A stretch of DNA of 64,000 nucleotides from a virus (Duplodnaviria; Heunggongvirae; Uroviricota; Caudoviricetes; Thumleimavirales; Hafunaviridae), in IMG/VR virus record IMGVR_UViG_2595698612_000001, positions 10,520 to 74,519 of that record; one strand, 5' to 3'. The stretch's first letter is position 1. Every line of letters begins with the position of its first letter. Positions 3,468 to 64,000 of this stretch are shown piece by piece. The notes under the pieces are model-generated. The model ran no database searches, was not told the origin of the DNA, and was given only the letters and a program-made list of their open reading frames with translations. The position numbers and the translations under genes were made by a program.

Positions 3468-4760
3468 ATGGCTGACTACGGCAACACTATCGAACCCGGT
3501 ATTGTTACGAACGTCAACTCGGCGCTTGCTGTCACTTCGAGTGGTGGCGCTCCCGCTGATGTTGGACTCGTTGGACAGGCTGACCTCGATGCGGGGACGG
3601 CTCAGGCGAACGCTGTCTATCAGGTCACTCGTGCGACGATGGCTCGTGAGTGGTTTGGCGAGGATAGCCCCCTCACTCAGAACGTCCTCGATGCTCTCGC
3701 GGAGGGAGCCTACCCGGTCTACGCGGTCGCGGTTGACCTCGTGGACGTTACGGGCGAAGACCTCTCCGGTCTTGCCTCGAACACGGGCACGCTGGCCGAG
3801 GGGCCGGTGAGCGAGGACGCCGCCGATACGGTGTTCACCATCAACGGCTCCGACCTCACGACCGTTCTGAAGTACGAAGACCTCTCTACTCTCTCGCCGG
3901 GTGCTGGCGAGGTCTACGTCAACCCATCGACGCGAGAGTTCAAGATTGACGCTGACGTAACCGTGGGCAACACGGGCGACTCCGTGGACTACGCCTACGG
4001 CGACTACGTTGCGGGCAATCAGGCTCTTGCTGACGACGCTGGTGGCGCGGTGGACTTCTTCGTTCCGCTGAGCGAGGACGCTGGCGCTACGCAGGACGCA
4101 CAGACCACGGTGGGTAACATGGCGAGCGAATACAACTTCGCAATCGCTATCGTCGGCGCTACGCCCGGCCTCGACCCGGCGAACTACTCCAACCAGTTCG
4201 ACGATTCTCGCGTTCAGGTCGTTTACCCGGCCCGCAACGCGGAGGGCTACTCCACGCTCGGTTCCTACGCCGGTCGGCGTGCGAAGCTCGGTATCACGAC
4301 TACGCCCATCAACAAGCGCCTCTCCACGCAGAAGTCGCTCGCTGTCAGTCTTGACCGCGCGGCCCGTGGTGCGCTGATTGACGAGCGCGTTGTTCCGCTG
4401 GCTGACGAGACGGAGGGCGCTCGGATTGCCGACGACGTGAACACCGTGAGCGACACGAACACGGACGAGGCGGGCATCCGCTTCGGCTTCACCCGGCTCG
4501 TGATGGACTACGTTATCACGGTCGTTCGCGTCAACGAACAGCCCTTCATCGGTCGGCTGAACAGCCGTGCGGTGCGGGCGTCCCTTGAGGGACTTCTGAG
4601 CAACCAGCTCAAGACCCTGAAGCGGTCGAACGCGATTATCGACTACAACGTGAACGTGTACCGTATCGACGCGACGAGCGCCGCCGTTGAGATTCAGGTT
4701 GAGACGGCCAAGCCGCTCCGCTTCATCGAGAACACGGTCACGATTGGCGCTTCGGCGTAA
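3468..4760 (+). CDS. contractile tail sheath protein (430 aa)
   Basis: N-terminus MADYxxxIEPGIVTNV resembles the sheath N-terminal consensus (M..Y..PGVYV.E). Gene order sheath-tube-chaperone-tape measure. Size typical of a sheath. Could alternatively be a capsid protein. Confidence 0.5.
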   Translation: MADYGNTIEPGIVTNVNSALAVTSSGGAPADVGLVGQADLDAGTAQANAVYQVTRATMAREWFGEDSPLTQNVLDALAEGAYPVYAVAVDLVDVTGEDLSGLASNTGTLAEGPVSEDAADTVFTINGSDLTTVLKYEDLSTLSPGAGEVYVNPSTREFKIDADVTVGNTGDSVDYAYGDYVAGNQALADDAGGAVDFFVPLSEDAGATQDAQTTVGNMASEYNFAIAIVGATPGLDPANYSNQFDDSRVQVVYPARNAEGYSTLGSYAGRRAKLGITTTPINKRLSTQKSLAVSLDRAARGALIDERVVPLADETEGARIADDVNTVSDTNTDEAGIRFGFTRLVMDYVITVVRVNEQPFIGRLNSRAVRASLEGLLSNQLKTLKRSNAIIDYNVNVYRIDATSAAVEIQVETAKPLRFIENTVTIGASA

Positions 4761-8559: not shown

Positions 8560-9989
8560 ATTGTGAAGACGCAAATATCTCCATAGCGATTCTGGACGAC
8601 AGCGGAGATTTCCAGAATCCACTTGTGGAGATTCGGCCCTTGGAGTTCAATTTCCAGCGAAACCGAGGTGAGTTCGACTTCGTTCGAGCGAAATTCTCTC
8701 AGGGAGTTGCTGACCACATCCAATCTTCGGTTCAAGACGATGATGGCGCACTTCACCGCCGTCGTCCTGCTCTCATCAAGTTCGGGGATGTTATCGTTCA
8801 CCGGATGCTCTACCTGCCCGACGCCGTTCAGTTCGGCTCGCAGAACGTCCACATCGAGTTGCATGACGTTCAAAAGCACCTCGATATTGGGGTTGTAGAC
8901 TACCAGCGACAGAACGTTACTCTCGAAGAAGCCTACCGATACGTCTTCAATCAGAAAGACACATCAACCGGGGAGTTGTTCTCCGGTATCGAGTTTGCGG
9001 TTCCTGATTCTGCGTTCGAGCGGGTGATTGCTATGTCCTCGAAGAACGGACGCCGCCACTACGAACGTGCGATGGATAGGGAGTCGATGCGTGAAATTCA
9101 GGACGGGAACGCGCTCGGTGTTCTCGATAAGGCGAAAGCTCTGCGTATCTATGAGCAGGAAGAAAATCTGAATATCATCAAGTCGAATTACGCTCTCGAC
9201 TTTAAGCAGGTCACTCCGTGGGAGGCTATTCTCGAAATGAACGAGAAGTTCGGAGTCACTACGTGGGTGGCCCCGGATGGGAAGTTTTGGGTCGGCAGTC
9301 GTGGTGCTACTGGAATTGACCACGTTGCGACACCAGACGACTCCCGAGTGTGGAAACTAATCGACTACAACATCACCCCTCCACGCGACCCGATTATGAA
9401 GGTCGTCGTTCGAGGGAAGATGATTCACGACCCGAACGAAAGTTGGGGTGAACAGCTCGGTGAGCTGGTGAATATGAGTCGAGGAACCAAGGACTTCCGC
9501 GCCGAGGGTGTTGCCGAACGTCCCGACCTCGATTTCGGTCGAATTGTTGAACCGGAAGACCTCGAAGTTGCGGCTGACGGTTTGGAATACGTTGCGAAGC
9601 GCCGGATGAAGAATATTCAGCGCGACCAATGGAGCGGTAATCTCGAACTTCTACCGTCTCACTCCGGTACTACGTGGACTGATATTCGCAAGGTACAGGT
9701 CGGTGATAACATCGTTACCGTCCCGCCTGAGAATACAGGCGGTGACTGTGATACGAATATTCGCCACGAGGCGTTCAATATCACCGGAGTAAATCACATT
9801 CTGAATGAGTCGGGAGAGTGGCTTCTCCGCCTCGATGTGGTTCCGCTCATGGACGGACACCTTGACCCGGAACACATCAAGTCCTATATGCGGTACTTCG
9901 ACCCGCATAAGAAGGAATACATCTCGGAGGAAGCCTACGAAGCCGACAAGAAGGCAGATGAGGGGATTCAACTCTCCGACTTCATCTAA
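8556..9989 (+). CDS. baseplate hub / tail protein D-like (477 aa)
   Basis: Start overlaps upstream stop (ATGA). Size and position match P2 gpD / Mu gpP-class hub proteins. Confidence 0.4.
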   Translation: MNCEDANISIAILDDSGDFQNPLVEIRPLEFNFQRNRGEFDFVRAKFSQGVADHIQSSVQDDDGALHRRRPALIKFGDVIVHRMLYLPDAVQFGSQNVHIELHDVQKHLDIGVVDYQRQNVTLEEAYRYVFNQKDTSTGELFSGIEFAVPDSAFERVIAMSSKNGRRHYERAMDRESMREIQDGNALGVLDKAKALRIYEQEENLNIIKSNYALDFKQVTPWEAILEMNEKFGVTTWVAPDGKFWVGSRGATGIDHVATPDDSRVWKLIDYNITPPRDPIMKVVVRGKMIHDPNESWGEQLGELVNMSRGTKDFRAEGVAERPDLDFGRIVEPEDLEVAADGLEYVAKRRMKNIQRDQWSGNLELLPSHSGTTWTDIRKVQVGDNIVTVPPENTGGDCDTNIRHEAFNITGVNHILNESGEWLLRLDVVPLMDGHLDPEHIKSYMRYFDPHKKEYISEEAYEADKKADEGIQLSDFI

Positions 9990-10432: not shown

Positions 10433-10791
10433 GCAAGAAGCTCGCTGTCCACGGTGCGACGTGTGAGGCTGACGGCCACCCTTCGGAGTGCCAAGCGGTC
10501 GTTTCTGGTTCGACGCAGGACGCTGACGGCGATACGTCTGTGACTATCAACGGAGTTCCTATCACAGACCACGGCGACTCGATGCACTTCGACTCTCATG
10601 CTCACGCATATAGCGAAGAAGACGGTTGTATCTCTCTCTCATCCCACGACCTCGTACCCGACGAGTCTCCCTCGTTCACGGTGAACGGTCGGCCCGTCGT
10701 TCGGGTTGGCGATTCTACGAGTGACCCCGGCGCGGGGACGGCTACGGTCGTTGATTCCGGTGGGAACGGAGCGGTAACGCACACGGAATAG
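10429..10791 (+). CDS. PAAR-repeat spike-tip protein (120 aa)
   Basis: GTG start overlaps the upstream TGA. PAAR-like repeats present (INGVPITDHGDS and VNGRPVVRVGDSTSDPG). Cys/His-rich, consistent with metal binding. Confidence 0.55.
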   Translation: MSKKLAVHGATCEADGHPSECQAVVSGSTQDADGDTSVTINGVPITDHGDSMHFDSHAHAYSEEDGCISLSSHDLVPDESPSFTVNGRPVVRVGDSTSDPGAGTATVVDSGGNGAVTHTE

Positions 10792-11182: not shown

Positions 11183-12414
11183 CGATTTCTCAAGACGGCT
11201 CTTTTGACGGCGACACCGAGGAGGAAATCCTCGATGCGATGATTGCCGACGCGAAGCAGTATTGGTCGGATGACATTAAGGAATCCGAGCTTGCTGTAAT
11301 CAGGCAGTTCTACCGGCCTATCGCTCGGCGTCTCGCACAGGCACAGGACGACATTGGACTTGTCCTCGAATCCACTCAGATTGATAACGCCGAAGGTACG
11401 GCCCTCGGGCTTCTGACGGCGCTTATCGGAGTGAAGCGACAGCCTTCCGTTCGGGCAACCGGAGAAGTCACATTTTCTCGGGAGAATGTCGCAGAGCTTG
11501 ATTACAACATCCCGGCGGGGACGAAAGTTCAGACGGCATCAGAGCCACCGACTGAGTTCGTCACTACGCAGGGTGCGACTATCGAGCAGGGGACTTCGAG
11601 CGCAACCGCTCCGGTTACTGCTATCGAACCCGGTGCTGATGGAAACGTTGGCGCTAACTCGATTACTGTTCTCCCCGTCCCACTCGCAGGTATCGAGACG
11701 GTCACAAATCCGAACGAAACTGTCGGTGGAGAGGACGAGGAGAGCGATGAACAACTCCGCAAGCGTGCGAAGGAGGAGTTAGCGGAGGGTTCGAGCGCGA
11801 CCGCCCCGGCGCTGGTGAGCGCGGTTCAGAACGTGGAGGGCGTCACGTCCGTCAGCATCCTCGTGAACGACACGAAGGACGACAACGGGCGAGGACACAA
11901 CCTCCCGTCTAACTCCGGCGAGCTGGTCGTCACGGGCGGCACGGACGAAGATGTGGCGCAGGCTATCCTCGAAACGAAGGGGATGGATTCGACTCTCGTG
12001 GCAGGAGTAAACGGTGTGGCTGTGACGGGAACTACGGCAAGCCTCCCGAACGGTCAGACCCTCCCGGTTGACTTCTCGCGGGCGAACCCCGTGACCATCT
12101 ACATCGAGGGAGATGTTCAGGTCGATTCCAACTACAAGAGCGACGATGACGTGCTGAACAACATCGTCGAGTATGTCGGCGGGCAGACCGTCGAAGGCTT
12201 CGAGCGCGACGGCAAGCTTGGCGTAACGGACGACGTTCTGTACGGCGAGATTGAGTACCGGATTCGGGAAATCCCCGGCGTGTACGACGTGACCTCCCTC
12301 ACGGTGGACAGGGTTAGTCCCCCGGTCGGGACGAGCAACGTCTCGATTGGCGATATGGAGGAAGCGACGACCGACGCCCGTTCGGACATTACGATTACGA
12401 CGACCGAGGTGTAG
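11179..12414 (+). CDS. baseplate J-like protein (411 aa)
   Basis: Overlapping start (ATGA) with gp25-like gene; size and order W-J-I typical of Mu/P2 baseplates. Confidence 0.55.
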   Translation: MTISQDGSFDGDTEEEILDAMIADAKQYWSDDIKESELAVIRQFYRPIARRLAQAQDDIGLVLESTQIDNAEGTALGLLTALIGVKRQPSVRATGEVTFSRENVAELDYNIPAGTKVQTASEPPTEFVTTQGATIEQGTSSATAPVTAIEPGADGNVGANSITVLPVPLAGIETVTNPNETVGGEDEESDEQLRKRAKEELAEGSSATAPALVSAVQNVEGVTSVSILVNDTKDDNGRGHNLPSNSGELVVTGGTDEDVAQAILETKGMDSTLVAGVNGVAVTGTTASLPNGQTLPVDFSRANPVTIYIEGDVQVDSNYKSDDDVLNNIVEYVGGQTVEGFERDGKLGVTDDVLYGEIEYRIREIPGVYDVTSLTVDRVSPPVGTSNVSIGDMEEATTDARSDITITTTEV

Positions 12415-20585: not shown

Positions 20586-20810
20586 ATAAAGAACCACACA
20601 CCGTGGGTATATAAAACGGGGGGTGTCGGGTGGGACTTTATTTCCCATCATTCGGTTGTGGAAACGCGGTGATACACGCACGGCATACGGGGCTATACCC
20701 CCTATTTATTTATAAGCAGAGTTGGTAGTAGAGGGTACAGAGGCACGCAGAAGGGGTAGTTACCGGCAAAGGTAGCCCCTTTCAGGGCCGAAGGCCACCT
20801 CGGTAAAGCG

Positions 20811-20857
20811 CGTCCTTGGTAAGGACGAGAGCGGGGGTTCAAATCCCCCCTCAGGCT
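20811..20857 (+). other. tRNA-Thr(GGU)-like 3' half (anticodon arm to acceptor 3' strand); candidate attP core
   Basis: CGTCC-TTGGTAA-GGACG anticodon arm and GGGGG-TTCAAAT-CCCCC T-arm are present. The 5' half does not fold as a tRNA. Lies immediately upstream of the integrase. Confidence 0.4.
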
Positions 20858-42967: not shown

Positions 42968-43039
42968 GAGCAACCGGCGGGAATCGAACCCGCAGAGCGT
43001 GGCTTTCGCTTCGCCCCCATTGCCAGTAGGTGTCGGTTG
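42968..43039 (-). tRNA. tRNA-like element: perfect 7-bp acceptor stem and T-arm, non-canonical D/anticodon region (anticodon undetermined; possible pseudo-tRNA)
   Basis: GCAACCG...GCGGG-TTCGATT-CCCGC-CGGTTGC-T. The internal 40 nt do not give a standard cloverleaf. Confidence 0.4.
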
Positions 43040-43115
43040 CGAGTCGCGGATTGCCGCGCCCACGCCCATCAAGGGGCATGGTCACGCGGCCTCCACCGGG
43101 GCGACTACCCGGCTC

Positions 43116-44270: not shown

Positions 44271-44290
44271 GGGAGGAATCGAACCTTCCC
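44271..44290 (-). other. isolated T-arm-like hairpin (GGAAGG-TTCGATT-CCTCCC) upstream of SPFH gene; possible tRNA remnant
   Basis: T-loop consensus is present but no complementary acceptor strands were found. Confidence 0.25.
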
Positions 44291-52876: not shown

Positions 52877-52955
52877 TTCTTAGAAGGTTCTGGTCAGCTC
52901 GTCACAGCCGGGGCGACCAACTCCCGACGACGCCCCAAAGTGGGGCGTTTCGCCG

Positions 52956-54955: not shown

Positions 54956-55195
54956 AGTAGACTCGTTGTTTGCTCCTCCGCCTTTCCGTGGCTGGCATCA
55001 TCAGACTACCCGAACCACCGGGTAGTGACACCCCTCGATGGGGTGTTTCGCCATTAGAATATCTCAGGTCGAACTACCTCGAACACGATTATCGCAATCC
55101 AGAGAACGAAGGACGCAAGAAGAACCTCAGCAGGAATCATACCGGGACAGCGGCCCCGCCGCCACCCCGTCGCTTGAAGAACTCTCGTAGGAGGT

Positions 55196-57675: not shown

Positions 57676-58344
57676 TTAGACCGAACCGACGACCGTAATC
57701 TCGCCACTCTCGATAGCGGCGTCCAACTCCATCGAGTCCATCCAGACCTTCGAGCAGTCCTCACAGAACGCCTCCGCTCCGTAGGTTCCTCGGTCGGTCA
57801 CTACGTGGTCGTGGTCACAGACCTCGTTCTGGTAGTGGAATTTCTCCTCGCGGAGTTCGTCGATTCGTTCTTCGACGGCCCAATGAAGGCCATTTCGGAT
57901 GGAAGCCTCGATTTCGGCCTCGTTGACGCCGTTCTCGTAGGCATCCTTAATCTCTCCCGGCGTTGCCTCGACGGTGAACTCGACAGTCACCGTTCCCCAC
58001 TTCTCTCCGGTGTATTCCTCACATCGGAGCTTCGAGCCGCCACGGGAGCCGTGCTTCATCTCCCACTTGCCACGGGAGTAGGGAACGACCTGCCAATCCG
58101 GGGAACAGGAATACTTCGCCATCCCCTCGATGTGTCCCTTATGGTCGTAGGTTTTCAGGGTGACGTGGGGGAGTTTCACCCGGAGATGCTTCATATCCCT
58201 CGGGTACATCTCGAACCACCGACCCATCAGGCGGGCCTTCCGAAGCTTCTTCCACGCTTCTTCGTCGTTGGCGTGGAATCGGTAGTGGTAGTCTCGACCG
58301 TCCGGGTTCCCCATCCAGTCCTCGGGGTACTCTCGCCACGTCAT
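57676..58344 (-). CDS. hypothetical protein (222 aa)
   Basis: Coding-like ORF with Cys/His-rich C-terminus. Confidence 0.5.
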   Translation of the reverse strand: MTWREYPEDWMGNPDGRDYHYRFHANDEEAWKKLRKARLMGRWFEMYPRDMKHLRVKLPHVTLKTYDHKGHIEGMAKYSCSPDWQVVPYSRGKWEMKHGSRGGSKLRCEEYTGEKWGTVTVEFTVEATPGEIKDAYENGVNEAEIEASIRNGLHWAVEERIDELREEKFHYQNEVCDHDHVVTDRGTYGAEAFCEDCSKVWMDSMELDAAIESGEITVVGSV

Positions 58345-58462
58345 TACTCGTCGTCCTCCGGTAACAGGTCGCCGTACTTCGTCTTGCTACGCTTGCTTCT
58401 CCGCTCGGCTTTCTCGATGCTTTCCAGCTCGTCCTCGCTGAGGGTATCTTCCAGAGTCGTCA

Positions 58463-58711
58463 TTAGGCTTCGACCTCCTCGATGGGGAGAACCAGCGGCT
58501 CGTTCTCGGTGTCTATCGGGTCTTCCGACCAGAAGAACACACCAAACGTTTCCTCGTCGTACTGATGGAGGTCGTAGGCTTCGGTGTAGTTCTCATCGTC
58601 GTCAAACGACTCGTTGAACGCCACGACCGCTTCCTCCTCAGTCTCCGCAGTAACGGTGATTTCGTAGCGGTTCTCCTGTTCGGGGTGGTCAGTTAGTCCA
58701 AGTATTCCCAT
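58463..58711 (-). CDS. hypothetical acidic protein (82 aa)
   Basis: Coding-like ORF. Confidence 0.4.
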   Translation of the reverse strand: MGILGLTDHPEQENRYEITVTAETEEEAVVAFNESFDDDENYTEAYDLHQYDEETFGVFFWSEDPIDTENEPLVLPIEEVEA

Positions 58712-58821
58712 CTCTCACTCCACGATGTAGTGGCCGTTCGGCGTCTCGTAGACCGTTCCGGGCTTCACGTAGTCGTCGTCCTCTGCCATTACCTCGTCAA
58801 CCGCGATTTCGAGAATGTTCA

Positions 58822-59094
58822 TTAGTATCCTGCCTCGTAGACCGCTTCCGCTTGCTCGAACGCCGATTCCTTAGCGTCGGTGAACACCTCTATCTCCACC
58901 ACAGCACGGGGATAGCCCTCGGTGTCCACGTTGAAGTTCTCGTAGAGAATCCAGCGGCCATCGAGGTCTTCTTCGAGAAGGTCGCAGGCCGCGAAGATTG
59001 CTTCCACGTCGTCGCTTTCGTCCACGGCGTACTCCGTGGCGAACACGTCCAAGTCCTCCTTCAGCCGCTCGATGATGTGTTCTTCCAGACTCAT
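58822..59094 (-). CDS. hypothetical acidic protein (90 aa)
   Basis: Coding-like ORF. Confidence 0.4.
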   Translation of the reverse strand: MSLEEHIIERLKEDLDVFATEYAVDESDDVEAIFAACDLLEEDLDGRWILYENFNVDTEGYPRAVVEIEVFTDAKESAFEQAEAVYEAGY

Positions 59095-59619
59095 CCCTTG
59101 ATGATTTGGAGGCCCTTGTTCGCTTCGAGGACGTGTTCCGCCGCTTCCTTCGTGGGGAAGGACTCGATAATGTCGAACTGAACGCCGGTCTTTCCTACGT
59201 CGAAGTACGGTTCTGTCGGGTCGATTAGGTGGTATTCGTTCATACTGTTATCAGCTCAGGCTTCGCTTCGTGGTTCGGTTCTGCCGTAGGAGCCAAGCTC
59301 AGTTTGGGGCCGCTCGGCTCCCTCGTTACCATCACGGCTCCCGCCGCTGGTGGGTCGTCGTCGTCGCCCCCTCCGCCTCGTGGATTGATTTCGAGAAGCG
59401 GATTCGCGTTGCTCTCGTCGTCGTCGCTCCCATCGTTCTCGGCGGATTGTTTGGGCAAGAATGTCACCACTCAAAGGTGTGCCACTTTCTCCATCGGGTC
59501 GTTGAAGCCGTCCAGTTCGTCCATATCGAAGCCGGGAGTGTCTCGGTCGTCGTAACTTGCCGCGTCGTTCATCTCGGGGTCGTGGAAGTCGGGATAGTAG
59601 TTGTCGTACATCGTTCTCG

Positions 59620-59910
59620 TTAGAGGTCGTTCAGGGCGTTTTCCAGCTCGCGGTCGAACAGAGCAACCAGTTGCTCGATGTATTGTCCGTCTCGGGGAAT
59701 CGGCTCTCGCATCTCCCCGTCGATGCCTCGAATCAGGTAGGAGTCGTCGCTCGGGATTACCTCGATGCCGCCCCACCAGATTTCGTCGTCGTAGAACTTC
59801 GCCACCGAAGCCCGGCGGAGTCGAAGCACGTAGTCTCCGACCTTCCGTTCGAGGTCGGGTTCGCTTAGGTCGATACGTCGGTCGTTGCTTGTCGCTGTTG
59901 CTACTGCCAT
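59620..59910 (-). CDS. hypothetical protein (96 aa, start trimmed to ATG 59910)
   Basis: The longer track ORF would run through the structured leader element. Internal ATG is preceded by GAGTGACACCT. Confidence 0.45.
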   Translation of the reverse strand: MAVATATSNDRRIDLSEPDLERKVGDYVLRLRRASVAKFYDDEIWWGGIEVIPSDDSYLIRGIDGEMREPIPRDGQYIEQLVALFDRELENALNDL

Positions 59911-59920
59911 AGGTGTCACT

Positions 59921-59983
59921 CGGTAGTATGGACTACCGGAAGCCCCGCTACGGAGTCGAACCGTAGTTCCCGCCACTCGGGGC
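59921..59983 (-). ncRNA. tRNA top-half-like structured leader element, copy A (hairpin CGGTAG/CTACCG + acceptor-like stem GCCCCG/CGGGGC enclosing T-arm-like hairpin CTACGG-TTCGACT-CCGTAG)
   Basis: Read in sequence on the - strand. The loop TTCGACT matches the T-loop consensus. Shares architecture with copy B but has different, compensating stems. Confidence 0.5.
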
Positions 59984-60196
59984 AAAGGGTTAGAGTTGCT
60001 TACTTGAGTCTTTAGAGTCTATGGAATCCACGCCTCCGGTCGGCTCTCTCGGCTCGTTCGAGGTCACAGTACCAGCAGTTACACTCCGGGTTGAACGAAT
60101 GTGGTTTCTTCATTTGGGGTTACTCGCATCGAGTCGTTGTCCCCGAGAAAGGTCTTCACTCTCAAAGACAACGTTGCGTTATTAAGTCTTTGCGGT

Positions 60197-60553
60197 TCAC
60201 ATCCACGCTCCGGTATAGGCCGCTCCGCGACCTTCCCGAACCTTTCGCTCGCGTTCCTTCCGTCGTTCCTCCTGCGTTCGGAGGGTCTTGAGTTTCTTAC
60301 CAGTCCCCCAGTAGGTCGAAACGATGTATTCGCTCTTGGGGTCAATCACGACCGTCATTACCGCTCCGCTCCACTTCGTTTCCAGCAGGACGTTTCCGCT
60401 GTGTCCCTGATAGGCGTCTCCCTCCTCGATGGCTTGGTCTATCGCTTCCATCGGAATCCGTCGCTCGCGTCGTCGGTTCCCACCGTGGGAACTGGGGTTG
60501 TAGTCGTAACTCGATGCGTCTCTGCTGAATTGAATCTCGTTCATCGTTGTCAC
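60197..60553 (-). CDS. hypothetical protein (118 aa)
   Basis: Coding-like ORF. Confidence 0.4.
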   Translation of the reverse strand: MTTMNEIQFSRDASSYDYNPSSHGGNRRRERRIPMEAIDQAIEEGDAYQGHSGNVLLETKWSGAVMTVVIDPKSEYIVSTYWGTGKKLKTLRTQEERRKERERKVREGRGAAYTGAWM

Positions 60554-60879
60554 TCGCTGTCGTGGTAATCGGAGTAGCGCCGCCGGTACTTCTCGGCCTT
60601 CTTCCGTCGCTCGATTTCCTCATCACTCAGGCCGGAGCCTTCGTATTCCTCAGGCTCCGACGTTTTCTCGTGATGGGGATGAATCTCACTCGGGTCGGGA
60701 GTCCATCCCATAAACTCGGCCAGTTCCTCACCTTTCAGGAGTTCTCCCTCGCGTTTTTCCTCAACTACCGCTCCGAAGGCTCGATGCCTCTGGTCGATTT
60801 TGAGGTCAGCTCGGTGGCTCCATTGGTTCTGTTCCTCACGCTCCGAGGTTCGGACAGTCCCAAGTCTCGGTGAGAACAT
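60550..60879 (-). CDS. hypothetical protein (109 aa)
   Basis: Start ATG overlaps the upstream small ORF's TAA (TAATG). Confidence 0.45.
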   Translation of the reverse strand: MFSPRLGTVRTSEREEQNQWSHRADLKIDQRHRAFGAVVEEKREGELLKGEELAEFMGWTPDPSEIHPHHEKTSEPEEYEGSGLSDEEIERRKKAEKYRRRYSDYHDSE

Positions 60880-61010
60880 TACTCGCTATCCTCACTATCC
60901 GCCGCGTTCAGCGCCGCTAACTTGTCCATCTCCCTCCGGTAATCCTCGTCGCTCAGAGGGTTGGTCAGACTACCAGCGCCGCCGCTACGTCGTGGATACT
61001 CTCGTCCCAT
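60879..61010 (-). CDS. small protein (43 aa, not in track)
   Basis: MGREYPRRSGGAGSLTNPLSDEDYRREMDKLAALNAADSEDSE. ATG preceded by GAGTGACACCT as in copy A. Confidence 0.3.
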   Translation of the reverse strand: MGREYPRRSGGAGSLTNPLSDEDYRREMDKLAALNAADSEDSE

Positions 61011-61022
61011 AGGTGTCACTCA

Positions 61023-61083
61023 CGGTAGCCGTTGCTACCGAAGGCCCTTCCGGGGAGTCGAACCCCGGTGTCGCCACTAAGGG
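61023..61083 (-). ncRNA. tRNA top-half-like structured leader element, copy B (CGGTAG/CTACCG hairpin + outer stem CCCTT/AAGGG enclosing CCGGGG-TTCGACT-CCCCGG)
   Basis: Same architecture and conserved loop/linker (AGTGGCG) as copy A, with covarying stems. Confidence 0.5.
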
Positions 61084-61112
61084 TTAATGAAGCGTCTTTG
61101 AGTCTTTGCGCC

Positions 61113-62012
61113 TTACTCGGAGTTTTCGAGCAACTGCTGAAGGAGTGCGTCCTTCTCGCGCTGGCTCATCTCACTCACGTCGGGAACCTCCGGCTCGGGA
61201 AGTTCGACGTGTTCCTCGTAGTCCTCGTAGTTGATACTAACCTCATTCTCCACGATGAACTGAAGGAACGTCTCCCCGAGGTTGTTCCCGATACCCTTCA
61301 CTTCCGTAGGGTCGAAAAGGTCGTCGGGGAGGTCGAGGCCGGTGTCACTCTCGCCGTCGCTACCGCTACCGCCGTTGTTCTTATCGCTCGTTTCCGCCGT
61401 CTCATCGACTTCGACTTCTCCGAAGTAGTCACTCAGAAGGGTCTTGAGGCGTTCCTCGGCTTCCTCGTAAGTCGGGACGCTCCCGACCTCGAAGCCATCC
61501 GCCGCCTCTTGACGACCTTCACTTGCCACTACCGGGACAATCGGCTCCCCGTCGCTGTTGATGGGAACCATCACGGTGTCACTTGCCTCGATGATTTCCT
61601 GACTGAGCAGTAGCTCACGCTGGAACTCATCGACCTCACCGAGAGGCTTCACACCGAATCCGCCGTTTTCCTCCTCTAAGGAGGCGTACTTGCCACTAAA
61701 GGCGTTGTAGTCGTTGGCGGTGTAGTCGGTGGACAGGAAGAACGCCCTCCCGAGAGAGCCGTCGCTATCGTTTGCTTCGCACGGCTCAATCAGGTTCACA
61801 TTCCGGGGCGCTTCACACCACTTAGCGATGTCACTCTCGCCGCCCTTCTTCACAGAATCCTCTCCGAACGCCTTACGCACTTCGTGGGCAAGGCTCACGA
61901 TGGAGTGGTCGTCCTTCTGAAGAAGGTCGTAGAGGTCGCTAACAGGGTTAGCGCCGAGGGTGTTCACCGTGTTCTCAACGAAGTCGCCGTCGCTGTTGAC
62001 TTTCACAGACAT
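61113..62012 (-). CDS. hypothetical acidic protein with helix-hairpin-helix motif (start trimmed to MSVKVNSDGDF, ~299 aa)
   Basis: DPTEVKGIGNNLGETF matches an HhH DNA-binding motif. First gene of the long leftward array. Confidence 0.5.
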   Translation of the reverse strand: MSVKVNSDGDFVENTVNTLGANPVSDLYDLLQKDDHSIVSLAHEVRKAFGEDSVKKGGESDIAKWCEAPRNVNLIEPCEANDSDGSLGRAFFLSTDYTANDYNAFSGKYASLEEENGGFGVKPLGEVDEFQRELLLSQEIIEASDTVMVPINSDGEPIVPVVASEGRQEAADGFEVGSVPTYEEAEERLKTLLSDYFGEVEVDETAETSDKNNGGSGSDGESDTGLDLPDDLFDPTEVKGIGNNLGETFLQFIVENEVSINYEDYEEHVELPEPEVPDVSEMSQREKDALLQQLLENSE

Positions 62013-62069
62013 AGTTCGTTGGGTGTCACTTAGTGCTACTTTCCGAGGGGGAAGCACCAAACCCCCCAT

Positions 62070-64000
62070 TCCGACAAATCGGAGTGAGAATTGTTCTCAC
62101 TCACGACTGTCGTGGTTTGCTTAGCGAGGGTCTTAGACCCTCAAAGCACTACCCGTCAATCGGGTTCAGCTTACGCTGGAACCTTTACGTCTATCCTTCC
62201 CCGCCCCTTACGGGACGGGCCGAACATACTAACGAGCGTTTTAAACGTGACACTCATCCCTCAAAGCCGACTGCTATACGCTACGCTGTGCGAACGTTTC
62301 GCTATGCGAGTTTCAAGCCTCAAAGAGTCTTTCGCGTTATTCGCTATGAGCATTTGCTCTTGACTACTACGTACTTCTCCCTACGAACCTGTTTTATGGC
62401 ATAGACTTTCAGTCCATAGGCTAAGCACCTATTGTTTTAACCGCAACCGCAACCGAAAGTGGGCGGGATTCACGTTTCCATAGATGTATCTAATACATCC
62501 GGTTCGACAGTTTCGAGACGTTAATCGCTCGATGTGTCTATTTTCGTCACTCTTTGCCCTAAGGGTCGCTCTTTGTCCGGGCCATACTCCCCCTGTTACC
62601 TGAAAATACACACCGAAACACCGTGTTTCGGTTTCCGACCGACATACCGGGGCGGGGCCGCTTTCGCGGGCCGTCCCGTTCGGGCCGTACTTCAAACGTA
62701 ACACCGGGAAAGGCGTTTGGGGCCGCGCTATGCTACCTTTGAGGTTATCGCCGGACTCACGCGGGGCCTTTCCTTTGTCGTATCAGGGGCGGGGCCGGTT
62801 TCACGGTTACAAACCGTTTCGCCGGGCCGCCCCCTCTTTCCCGCCCCGGCCCCTAAGGGCCGGTAAATCTCCCCCGTACTAAGACGGGCCTATGTGGTTT
62901 AGGGCCGTTTCGGGACGCTTTCGGGTTATCTCCCCGTCTCTCGGGGAATTGTCGGTTAATCCGACGTTTCCGTACTAACGAACCTACTAAGAATCCCGGC
63001 CCCGGTATCCACACCGGGGTTTCCGGCCCCTAAGGGCCGTTTCACCGTGAAAGACGGGCCGTTTCCGGCCCCGTCTCCTACATTCCGTAAGGGTCAATTC
63101 GGCGTTTGTTCCGTCTCTCGGGGCGGCCCGTAACAGGGGCCGAAACCCGAGAGAACTACCAAACACGTACTTACCCGCCCCCGACCGTTCGGGGGGAGAT
63201 TAGCGGTAATTCCGTTTGAAGGTGGCAACGTACTAACGGAAACATCCAACGGGGGGCGCATATGGCAACGCCCCCGGAAAGCGGGACTTAAACCGCTTTT
63301 CCGGTGTTTCCGGGCCTTTTACGCCGGGGAGTGTATCCCCCGGCCCATTTCAGGGGGCCGCCGTCCCGGTTAACATCAAACCGGGGCGGGCCGCCTTTCG
63401 CCGGGCGACATTCAACCAGAATACCCGGTTTCATATAAACCCGTCGATTTGGATTAGTATATAAAGACGGGAAACACCGGAAACGCCGAACGTGAAGGGT
63501 ACAAGCCTCGATGCGGTAAAACACGGAAAACACAAAAGAGGGAGATATACCCGATTATGGGATAGGGTAGGGGGGCCGAACGGGACGGACACACCGGGAC
63601 ACACCAAAAAGACGGGACACACCGGGACGGACACACAAGAAACGGGCCGTAGTTGCCTTTCCCGGCGTTTTCAGGGGCCGGGGGATACCGGGATACGGCC
63701 CGTATGGACACACCGGGGAGACGGACATACGGCCCCCGCGCGGGACGAGAGACGGGACGGGACGGGCCGGGCCGGGCCGGGACGAGAGACGGCCCCAGTA
63801 GGGACGGACACACCGGGGCCGGGGCCGGGGCCGGGGCCGGGGCCGGGACGGGGGCCGACCGGGACACATCAGCAGGCAGGCGGGACGCCCGCGCGTAGGG
63901 CGGCCAACAACGCCAATATCCGAGGGTACAAGCCCCAACGAAGGGGCGGGGACGGCCCCCGGTTAGAACATTAAGGTACATTCCGCACACGAGCTTTAGT
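62070..64000. repeat. ~1.9-kb non-coding region dense in inverted repeats, direct repeats and G-rich iterons; candidate replication origin / control or packaging region
   Basis: No credible ORFs (only Pro/Arg/Gly-rich GC-artefact frames). Inverted repeats: GAGTGAGAA-ttg-TTCTCACTC, CCGAAACAC-cg-GTGTTTCGG, GATGTAT-ctaa-ATACATC. CCTCAAAG occurs 3 times. GGGGCGGGGCCG-N-TTTCRCGG occurs 3 times. CGTACTAACG occurs twice. GGGAC(GG)ACACACC repeats. Confidence 0.6.
63815..63847. repeat. (GGGGCC)n hexamer tandem array, ~5.5 copies; nearby (GGGCC)3 at 63764-63782
   Basis: Seen directly; G4-forming potential. Confidence 0.7.

Follow-up and report, generated by a model that had tools for sequence, protein, structure and literature searches.

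We examined a stretch of 64,000 nucleotides (nt), referred to below as the window, from the tailed-virus record IMGVR_UViG_2595698612_000001 (Hafunaviridae; positions 10,520 to 74,519 of the record), in which two similar structures, copies A and B, lie on the coding (-) strand at the early (left) end of the genome, in the 5' leaders of genes 124 and 127. These elements are RNA structures under selection at the RNA level, and they very probably belong to the t-elements, the tRNA-like structures which in haloarchaea precede 5S rRNA. We also consider it probable on balance that host RNase P and tRNase Z would use these viral t-elements to punctuate the early polycistronic transcript.

Positions 58000-63000 of the window were 100% identical to Halorubrum tailed virus 8 (HRTV-8, KC292020.1, record 68519-73519), a myovirus of the genus Haloferacalesvirus that belongs to the HF1/HF2 group, and the region was common to 41 related phage records. 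In the KC292020 record, the spacers holding copies A and B carry no annotation. Both structures were found to be as the original prediction, which was made from the letters of the window alone, had described them upstream of the ATGs at 59910 and 61010 (Table 1). They share one fold, in which an outer stem is stacked on a T-arm of 6 base pairs (bp) and is followed by a GC-rich hairpin (hairpin 2), the leader GAGUGACACC and the ATG. The T-loop UUCGACU and a linker of 10-11 nt with an AGUGG motif are common to both copies. The distance from the stop codon of the preceding open reading frame (ORF) to the start of the element was 28-29 nt in both cases, and an AAAGACT box was located inside that spacer. 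Judged by its letters, the leader of gene 124 may offer a short GUGA match to the anti-Shine-Dalgarno sequence. A Pfam search gave no match for the downstream genes 124 and 127.

Table 1. Coordinates of the viral elements in the window and of similar cassettes in other viral contigs.
Sequence	Feature	Position	Strand	Basis and remarks
Window	Copy A, whole t-element	59942-59983	-	6+6 bp; R1 103.9 bits, R2 63.8 bits
Window	Copy A outer stem GCCCCG/CGGGGC	59983-59978 / 59947-59942	-	sequence
Window	Copy A linker AGTGGCGGGAA	59977-59967	-	sequence; contains AGUGG
Window	Copy A T-stem CTACGG/CCGTAG	59966-59961 / 59953-59948	-	sequence
Window	Copy A T-loop TTCGACT	59960-59954	-	sequence
Window	Copy A hairpin 2	59938-59921	-	7 bp, loop CCAU; 3 nt 3' of outer stem
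Window	Copy A leader AGTGACACCT	59920-59911	-	sequence
Window	Gene 124 ATG	59910-59908	-	leader and AUG together AGUGACACCU, 59908-59920
Window	AAAGACU box ('alpha'-like promoter motif), 5' of copy A	60007-60013	-	sequence, relatives
Window	Equivalent of HF2 5' end T-4384	59974	-	transferred by alignment
Window	Copy B, whole t-element	61045-61083	-	5+6 bp; R1 90.7 bits, R2 63.7 bits
Window	Copy B outer stem CCCTT/AAGGG, 5 bp	61083-61079 / 61049-61045	-	sequence
Window	Copy B linker AGTGGCGACA	61078-61069	-	sequence
Window	Copy B T-stem CCGGGG/CCCCGG	61068-61063 / 61055-61050	-	sequence
Window	Copy B T-loop	61062-61056	-	
Window	Copy B hairpin 2	61040-61023	-	7 bp, loop AACG; compensatory variants in relatives
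Window	Copy B leader	61022-61011	-	leader and AUG of gene 127 together UGAGUGACACCU, 61008-61022
Window	Gene 127 ATG	61010-61008	-	sequence
Window	AAAGACU box, 5' of copy B	61101-61107	-	starts 5 nt past gene 128 stop codon (61113-61115)
L086	3 copies and a divergent fourth			52-57 bits (fourth, 18.7 bits); acidic proteome
L130	2 clear copies, 1 weak			acidic proteome
L006	2 copies	8915-8960, 12304-12350	-	proteome not acidic
L129	Single copy			
L077	Single copy	9218-9264		proteins not acidic
L110	Single copy	1151-1189		proteins not acidic
L040	Single copy	2928-2968		proteins not acidic
L066	Single copy	1324-1369		proteins not acidic
L140	Single copy	5448-5496		proteins not acidic

Conservation and specificity of the elements

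The comparison set consisted of 20 distinct Haloferacalesvirus genomes, from which every copy was extracted. Copies A and B occupied the same positions in all 20. Among all HF-group copies the T-loop UUCGACU was invariant and the linker followed the consensus AG[T/C/A]GG[C/T]G; GTGACACC and the ATG were likewise invariant in the 20 genomes, the base directly before the ATG being T, G or A. The outer stem of copy A occurred as GCCCCG/CGGGGC, GCTCCG/CGGAGC or GCTCTG/CAGAGC, with G-U forms in HRTV-21 and HRTV-22, and copy B had a U-G form in HRTV-5. Similarly, four compensated versions of hairpin 2 were present among the relatives (GGTAGC/GCTACC, AGTAGC/GCTACT, GATAGC/GCTATC and GGTAGT/ACTACC), the loop being a GNRA-like tetraloop in most of them, and in hairpin 2 of copy A, pair 59-64 of alignment A1 alternated between C-G and U-A. 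In this alignment, 97.8% of cells were paired, compared with 85.8% in shuffles (none of 500 reached the observed value), and 30-48% were paired when the partner was slid as a control. RNAalifold returned the same three helices when no structure was supplied. The compensatory stem covariation proposed from the two copies therefore holds, and with compensatory and G-U changes across 20 genomes it is stronger than two copies can show. This observation also bears out the view that the structure is selected as RNA and imitates, in 5' leaders, the half of a tRNA formed by acceptor and T-arm.

Some records run the downstream coding sequence (CDS) through copy A. A coding reading of this kind was ruled out by the compensatory pattern and by HF2, which has a 2-nt deletion in the linker, an indel indicating that the stretch is not coding. 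The CDS starts in question are probably over-extended. The downstream CDS was annotated ~75 nt longer, through copy A, in L025 (3817-4185), L030 and L031 (3081-3449 in each), L032 (2182-2550), L033 (2248-2616), L034 and L035 (1817-2182) and L023 (4164-4529). HRTV-9 gp91 (L025 9584-9661) was likewise drawn over a hammerhead ribozyme. Upstream of copy A, an unannotated ORF of 33 amino acids (MKKPHSFNPECNCWYCDLERAERADRRRGFHRL) with a CxxC motif was found at 60012-60113 (-), and its stop codon overlaps the AAAGACT box of this copy; an ORF of the same length is annotated at the same position in HSTV-3 and HJTV-3.

Two covariance models were used for searches, R1 for the whole cassette and R2 for the tRNA-like module alone, the latter built from viral sequences only. 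Across the 64 kb, the scores of copies A and B (Table 1) compare with 13.4 bits for the next-best match of R1 and with at most 13 bits for everything else found by R2. R2 gave no match in the remaining 10.6 kb of the genome. Such a search had been suggested as a check of the original prediction; by these models the whole virus carries exactly two copies, and the paired architecture is kept in the 20 related genomes. The 13.4-bit match, at 62018-62090 (-) and 5' of gene 128, was rejected as a third copy, sharing with the two elements only the AAGUGACACC leader and having a nested hairpin with no T-loop. In this spacer of gene 128, the first early gene, the leader motif AAGTGACACC stands after the nested hairpin CCGA..GGGGG..CCCCC..TCGG, and thus the motif marks three successive early leaders.

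General tRNA and RNA-family searches did not recognize the elements. ARAGORN called no tRNA at the locus, Rfam at gathering thresholds reported nothing there, and the tRNA model RF00005 had no match in 59850-61150 even at E<=10, in keeping with elements that form no cloverleaf. In a permissive Rfam scan, the best match was mascRNA-menRNA (RF01684), which was found for copy B only (25 bits, E 0.02) and far under its gathering score of 42.5; copy A had no match to this model, and neither copy can be assigned to the family. The mascRNA/MALAT1 and MEN-beta modules are tRNA-like and serve 3'-end processing, in which cuts by RNase P and RNase Z produce the ends of a longer RNA. They resemble the viral elements in that they combine an acceptor stem and a T-arm with a D-like segment containing GG, but they are eukaryotic and have an extra anticodon-like arm.

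Similarity to the haloarchaeal 5S rRNA t-element

The 5S t-element was reportedly described by Holzle et al. in 2008 (RNA 14:928) and 2012 (Biochimie 94:940). In Haloferax volcanii, a tRNA-like t-element lies directly 5' of 5S rRNA and is cut by tRNase Z, which generates the 5' end of the 5S rRNA (PMC4326828; PMC4946936; PMC3296008; PMC7714728). When t-elements flank a CRISPR RNA, they are cleaved in vivo by RNase P and tRNase Z, as in the RNase P/tRNase Z cassette of Maier et al. 2015 (PMC4326828). We collected 120 haloarchaeal 5S loci by a scan of a genome collection and read the sequence upstream of them. One host example reads GATCGAG-ACTGGTACTC-TCGTGG-TTCGATT-CCACGA-CTCGAC, with the 5S rRNA 2-3 nt further on. 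In 100 haloarchaeal 5S loci, R2 gave 45 matches of 25-42 bits, and all but one of them (44) ended 32-41 nt before the 5S motif, i.e., at the 5' end of the 5S rRNA. A single profile built on viral sequences thus detects the host 5S elements and, in the window, only copies A and B.

The two groups of elements agree in each part of their architecture. An outer, acceptor-like stem of 5-6 bp is set directly on a 6-bp T-stem with contiguous 3' strands (~11-12 bp together), and there is no D-arm or anticodon arm; in the host elements, the outer stem has 5 bp and the T-stem 6 bp, as in copy B, and these helices covary. The T-loop is UUCGAYU closed by G-C pairs (UUCGAUU or UUCGACU in hosts), the linker has ~10-11 nt with a conserved GG (host linkers include ACUGGU, AUUGGC and GUCGGC), and a structured RNA starts 2-4 nt downstream. 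The GG of the linker may mimic G18G19 of the D-loop and make a tertiary contact with the T-loop. In contrast to the rRNA operon elements, the viral copies are located in mRNA leaders, are followed by a hairpin and a start codon rather than by 5S rRNA, and overlap a putative internal promoter (HF2 T-4384). They also have the linker AGUGGCG and the loop UUCGACU, whereas hosts mostly have NYUGGY and UUCGAUU. The shared architecture and the cross-detection by R2 place the viral elements structurally in the t-element class. We found no description of t-elements in haloviruses in the searchable literature, and viral mRNA leaders appear to be a new context for a known kind of t-element.

Other known systems resemble the elements in part. 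The t-elements of plant mitochondria and the tRNA punctuation model of mitochondrial transcripts (Forner et al. 2007, PMC1920247) also involve tRNA-like structures within polycistronic or mRNA transcripts, at which RNase P and RNase Z set the 5' and 3' ends of mRNAs; unlike the viral copies, they belong to another domain of life and have another origin, and the plant t-elements are usually fuller cloverleaf remnants. In HF2 itself, the left 16 kb was treated as having promoters 'without extended sequence pattern', and the RNA fold was not described (PMC8707807). Two HF2 fragments, IRA (2880-2937) and IRCc (4343-4385), had been tested as candidate promoters (Russ, Pfeiffer and Dyall-Smith 2021, PMC8707807), and we found that they correspond to the upstream halves of copies B and A, respectively. 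The elements share an upstream AAAGACU box and a GAGUG start region with the class I intergenic repeats of HF2 (PMC8707807). However, the class I repeat is a 58-bp sequence with alpha, beta (TCTTTAAGTC) and gamma (CGTCTNNTAGAG) parts, and the viral elements, having neither beta nor gamma, do not belong to it.

Similar cassettes were also sought by a pattern scan of IMG/VR, whose results were filtered for stems and then searched with R1 and R2. Other viral contigs showed the same architecture with unrelated stem sequences, often in several copies on one strand (Table 1). In L086 and L130, a GC-rich hairpin starts within 0-3 nt after nearly every copy, and behind it come a short leader specific to the contig and an ATG; one of the L086 copies started 15 nt past the upstream stop codon. 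R2 was specific, since 890 kb of pattern-selected loci yielded only 9 matches, 5 of which were training sequences. The predicted proteomes of L086 and L130 were acidic like that of the window, and the amino-acid composition of L086 suggests a halophile virus; for L086, neither tblastn against phage records nor a Pfam search gave a match. The presence of t-element-like modules 5' of ORFs in contigs with non-acidic proteins points to hosts that are probably not halophiles. Judging from these sequences, the device may be used beyond haloviruses.

Proposed processing of the early transcript

Punctuation by host RNase P and tRNase Z, which is the explanation that we favor, would proceed as follows. 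The early (left-end) genes would be transcribed into long polycistronic RNAs that read through the elements, and each element would fold within the read-through RNA. Host RNase P would cut directly 5' of the outer stem, between 59984 and 59983 and between 61084 and 61083, and free the upstream message, and host tRNase Z would cut just past the 3' strand (~59941/59940 and 61044-61041). In HF2, the predicted tRNase Z sites would fall at ~4416-4417 and 2945-2948. The downstream message would then start with the GC-rich hairpin 2, which would shield its 5'-monophosphate end, followed by the leader and the AUG, and a mini-tRNA-like RNA of ~40 nt would be released. We infer the cleavage of the viral copies, the positions of the cuts and the protective role of hairpin 2.

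Published data on HF2 are informative with regard to the first step. The primer for product F1 of reverse transcription PCR (RT-PCR) lay within the T-loop of copy B, and this product ran on into gene 005, whereas product F2 spans copy A (PMC8707807 Table S4); these products indicate that read-through RNA over both HF2 copies exists. RT-PCR products covered 18-35 kb, as against Northern bands of 0.5-9 kb, and processing of long transcripts was invoked by the authors (PMC8707807). The window also contains two intergenic type II hammerhead ribozymes, at 52889-52955 (-) and 54986-55053 (-), which scored 45.4 and 51.2 bits in Rfam. They precede the ATGs of genes 102 (helicase) and 107 by 12 and 30 nt, respectively, and neither is annotated in KC292020. 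Every relative that was checked had one or two hammerheads at varying intergenic sites of the same operon, just 5' of start codons, and HF2 annotates one. RNA-level cutting is thus already a feature of that transcript.

Several observations weigh against punctuation. Holzle et al. 2012 reportedly found that other predicted Haloferax tRNA-like elements were not cleaved in vitro, and removal of the D-arm reportedly reduced cleavage by the Haloferax enzyme strongly (Schierling et al. 2002). The host 5S element, however, is itself without a D-arm, yet its cleavage has been published. The only mapped 5' end near an ortholog of the elements is HF2 T-4384, which is located in the linker of copy A and is the G that follows GAGU (PMC8707807). 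Its position is downstream of the 5' strand of the outer stem and differs from both of the sites predicted here, that of RNase P and that of tRNase Z. This end came from primer extension, in which primary and processed ends were not distinguished, and no 5' end was reported for HF2 at the predicted tRNase Z site (PMC8707807). If T-4384 is a true start, RNAs made from this promoter are unable to fold the outer stem, which leaves read-through RNAs as the sole possible substrates; the covariation of the outer stem would then argue for selection on the read-through form. Besides transcript ends, two statistical points belong here. The family-level covariation, with 96.4% of cells paired against 66.5% in shuffled sequences and 10 of 12 pairs changing on both sides, is inflated, as members from outside the HF group were chosen by requiring stems. 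Single-sequence folding energies were not significant relative to shuffles (z -1.2 to -1.8), and the short motifs alone (GGTTCGACTCC and AGTGACACCTATG, with mismatches) occurred at chance frequency; the signal therefore resides in the combined architecture and in the comparison of genomes, not in thermodynamics.

The same 5' end could be explained if the elements are uncleaved structured leaders, which we regard as unlikely. Transcription would start inside the linker, the T-arm hairpin and hairpin 2 would stabilize the transcript or tune translation initiation, and the outer stem would form only in read-through RNA, where it might serve, e.g., for masking or insulating. This would fit the HF2 5' end, which falls on the G of the linker sequence GAGUG and is preceded by an alpha-like promoter box (CTAAAGACTTAGAA, 5' of the transcription start site T-4384, was described as alpha-like; PMC8707807). 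It would also fit the cloning of fragment IRCc (4343-4385), which ends one base past T-4384, as a candidate promoter (PMC8707807), and the conservation of the leader and hairpin 2 beyond what a spacer requires. However, it would leave unexplained why the outer stem covaries with a 5' strand that precedes that start, why the fold reproduces the host 5S processing signal in its T-loop, in the GG of its linker and in the lengths of its helices, and why an L086 copy begins so close to the upstream stop codon.

A second group of explanations concerns the released RNA. It is distinctly unlikely that the virus copied the 5S t-element, the one validated tRNase Z signal of the host that is not a tRNA, for purposes beyond punctuation, and that excised, possibly CCA-tagged RNAs or uncut leaders act early in infection as decoys or competitors for host tRNase Z, RNase P or tRNA-directed defence factors and so couple the maturation of viral mRNAs to interference with that of host 5S rRNA or tRNA. 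Such a scheme would include a built-in switch, by which transcripts from internal promoters, having no outer stem, escape cleavage, and read-through transcripts are cut. It is quite improbable that the function resides in the released mini-tRNA-like RNA itself, which would act as a decoy for host factors that bind tRNA or would compete for them. Its targets could be tRNase Z, RNase P, the CCA-adding enzyme, T-loop modification enzymes or tRNA-targeting defence nucleases, and one possible effect would be interference with the maturation of host 5S rRNA or tRNA. The T-loop and the linker GG are indeed invariant beyond the need of a mere cleavage ruler, the mimicry of the host 5S element is exact, and the elements are located in the earliest-expressed region (PMC8707807). 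In contrast, each genome has just two copies, both within mRNA leaders, and the tight coupling to hairpin, leader and ATG in unrelated contigs favors a role in cis.

We consider it very improbable that the elements act at the DNA level, as part of a promoter or operator for early genes (a regulatory site of the kind of the intergenic repeats), with a protein bound to the inverted repeats and an incidental likeness to tRNA. In favor of this, the elements overlap the mapped start site and the alpha-like box, and GAGTG is similar to the initiator region with which the HF2 class I repeats end on their 3' side. Nevertheless, each of three helices, nested or adjacent, covaries on its own, and the intermediates on the sense strand are G-U rather than A-C; for a protein site, concerted change of half-sites separated by 30 nt would be unlikely; and host rRNA operon transcripts contain the same fold without the involvement of a promoter. 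It is hardly credible that the elements are decaying remnants of tRNA genes or of integrase attachment sites, with no present function: although tRNA genes are present in HF-group viruses, together with a partial tRNA used as the phage attachment site (attP) (PMC8707807), and other degenerate tRNA-like pieces are present in the window, the elements have identical positions in all relatives with compensatory changes, their loop and linker are invariant, the virus's own attP is elsewhere, and neither ARAGORN nor the Rfam tRNA model calls them. A ribozyme reading, prompted by the 5' end in the linker and by the hammerheads of the operon, was also rejected; no Rfam ribozyme matched in 59850-61150 at E<=10, and no pairing scheme like that of the hepatitis delta virus or hammerhead ribozymes could be drawn on the element sequence by inspection.

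Other tRNA-like sequences and implications

The original prediction had named 42968-43039 and 44271-44290 as possible further members. Both were dismissed, matching the models at the level of the T-arm only, with 8-10 bits. The first, at 42968-43040 (-), is a full-length degenerate tRNA-like sequence with a 7-bp acceptor stem (GCAACCG/CGGTTGC) and a T-arm; it scored 23 bits with the tRNA-Sec model, is separated from tRNA-Gly by ~75 nt and overlaps the start codon annotated for gene 80 (ATG at 43020). This sequence may be a pseudo-tRNA or a processing signal of a different kind. The second is a weak T-arm inside the CDS of gene 83. The general interpretation, without these extra members, is supported in part: the elements are RNA structures, and the 5S t-element architecture and the cross-detection by R2 give strong, though indirect, support to a tRNA-like processing signal.

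Two further tRNA-like sequences were observed in the course of the analysis. The Rfam tRNA model matched 20787-20857 (+) with 33.4 bits, just over its gathering score, and ARAGORN made no call there. In the part of the HRTV-8 record outside the window (L272 3000-3074), an annotated tRNA-Pro is located in the late operon, 13 nt 5' of the ORF for the terminase large subunit; its HF2 counterpart was described as atypical and of uncertain function (PMC8707807).

For annotation, the elements provide a correction for the several relatives which have ORFs drawn across them. The naturally diverse cassettes may also be of use as t-elements in the Haloferax RNA-expression toolbox. The logic of punctuation proposed here matches that of mitochondria, of plant t-elements and of MALAT1/mascRNA. 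If true, it would help to explain why the primary transcripts of the HF group are very long while the RNAs seen in Northern blots measure 0.5-9 kb (PMC8707807), and the range of the haloarchaeal t-element would widen from one rRNA site to transcripts that code for proteins. If the viral copies are cut as predicted, they would represent a clear case of an archaeal virus that punctuates its mRNAs with the tRNA-end-processing enzymes of its host.

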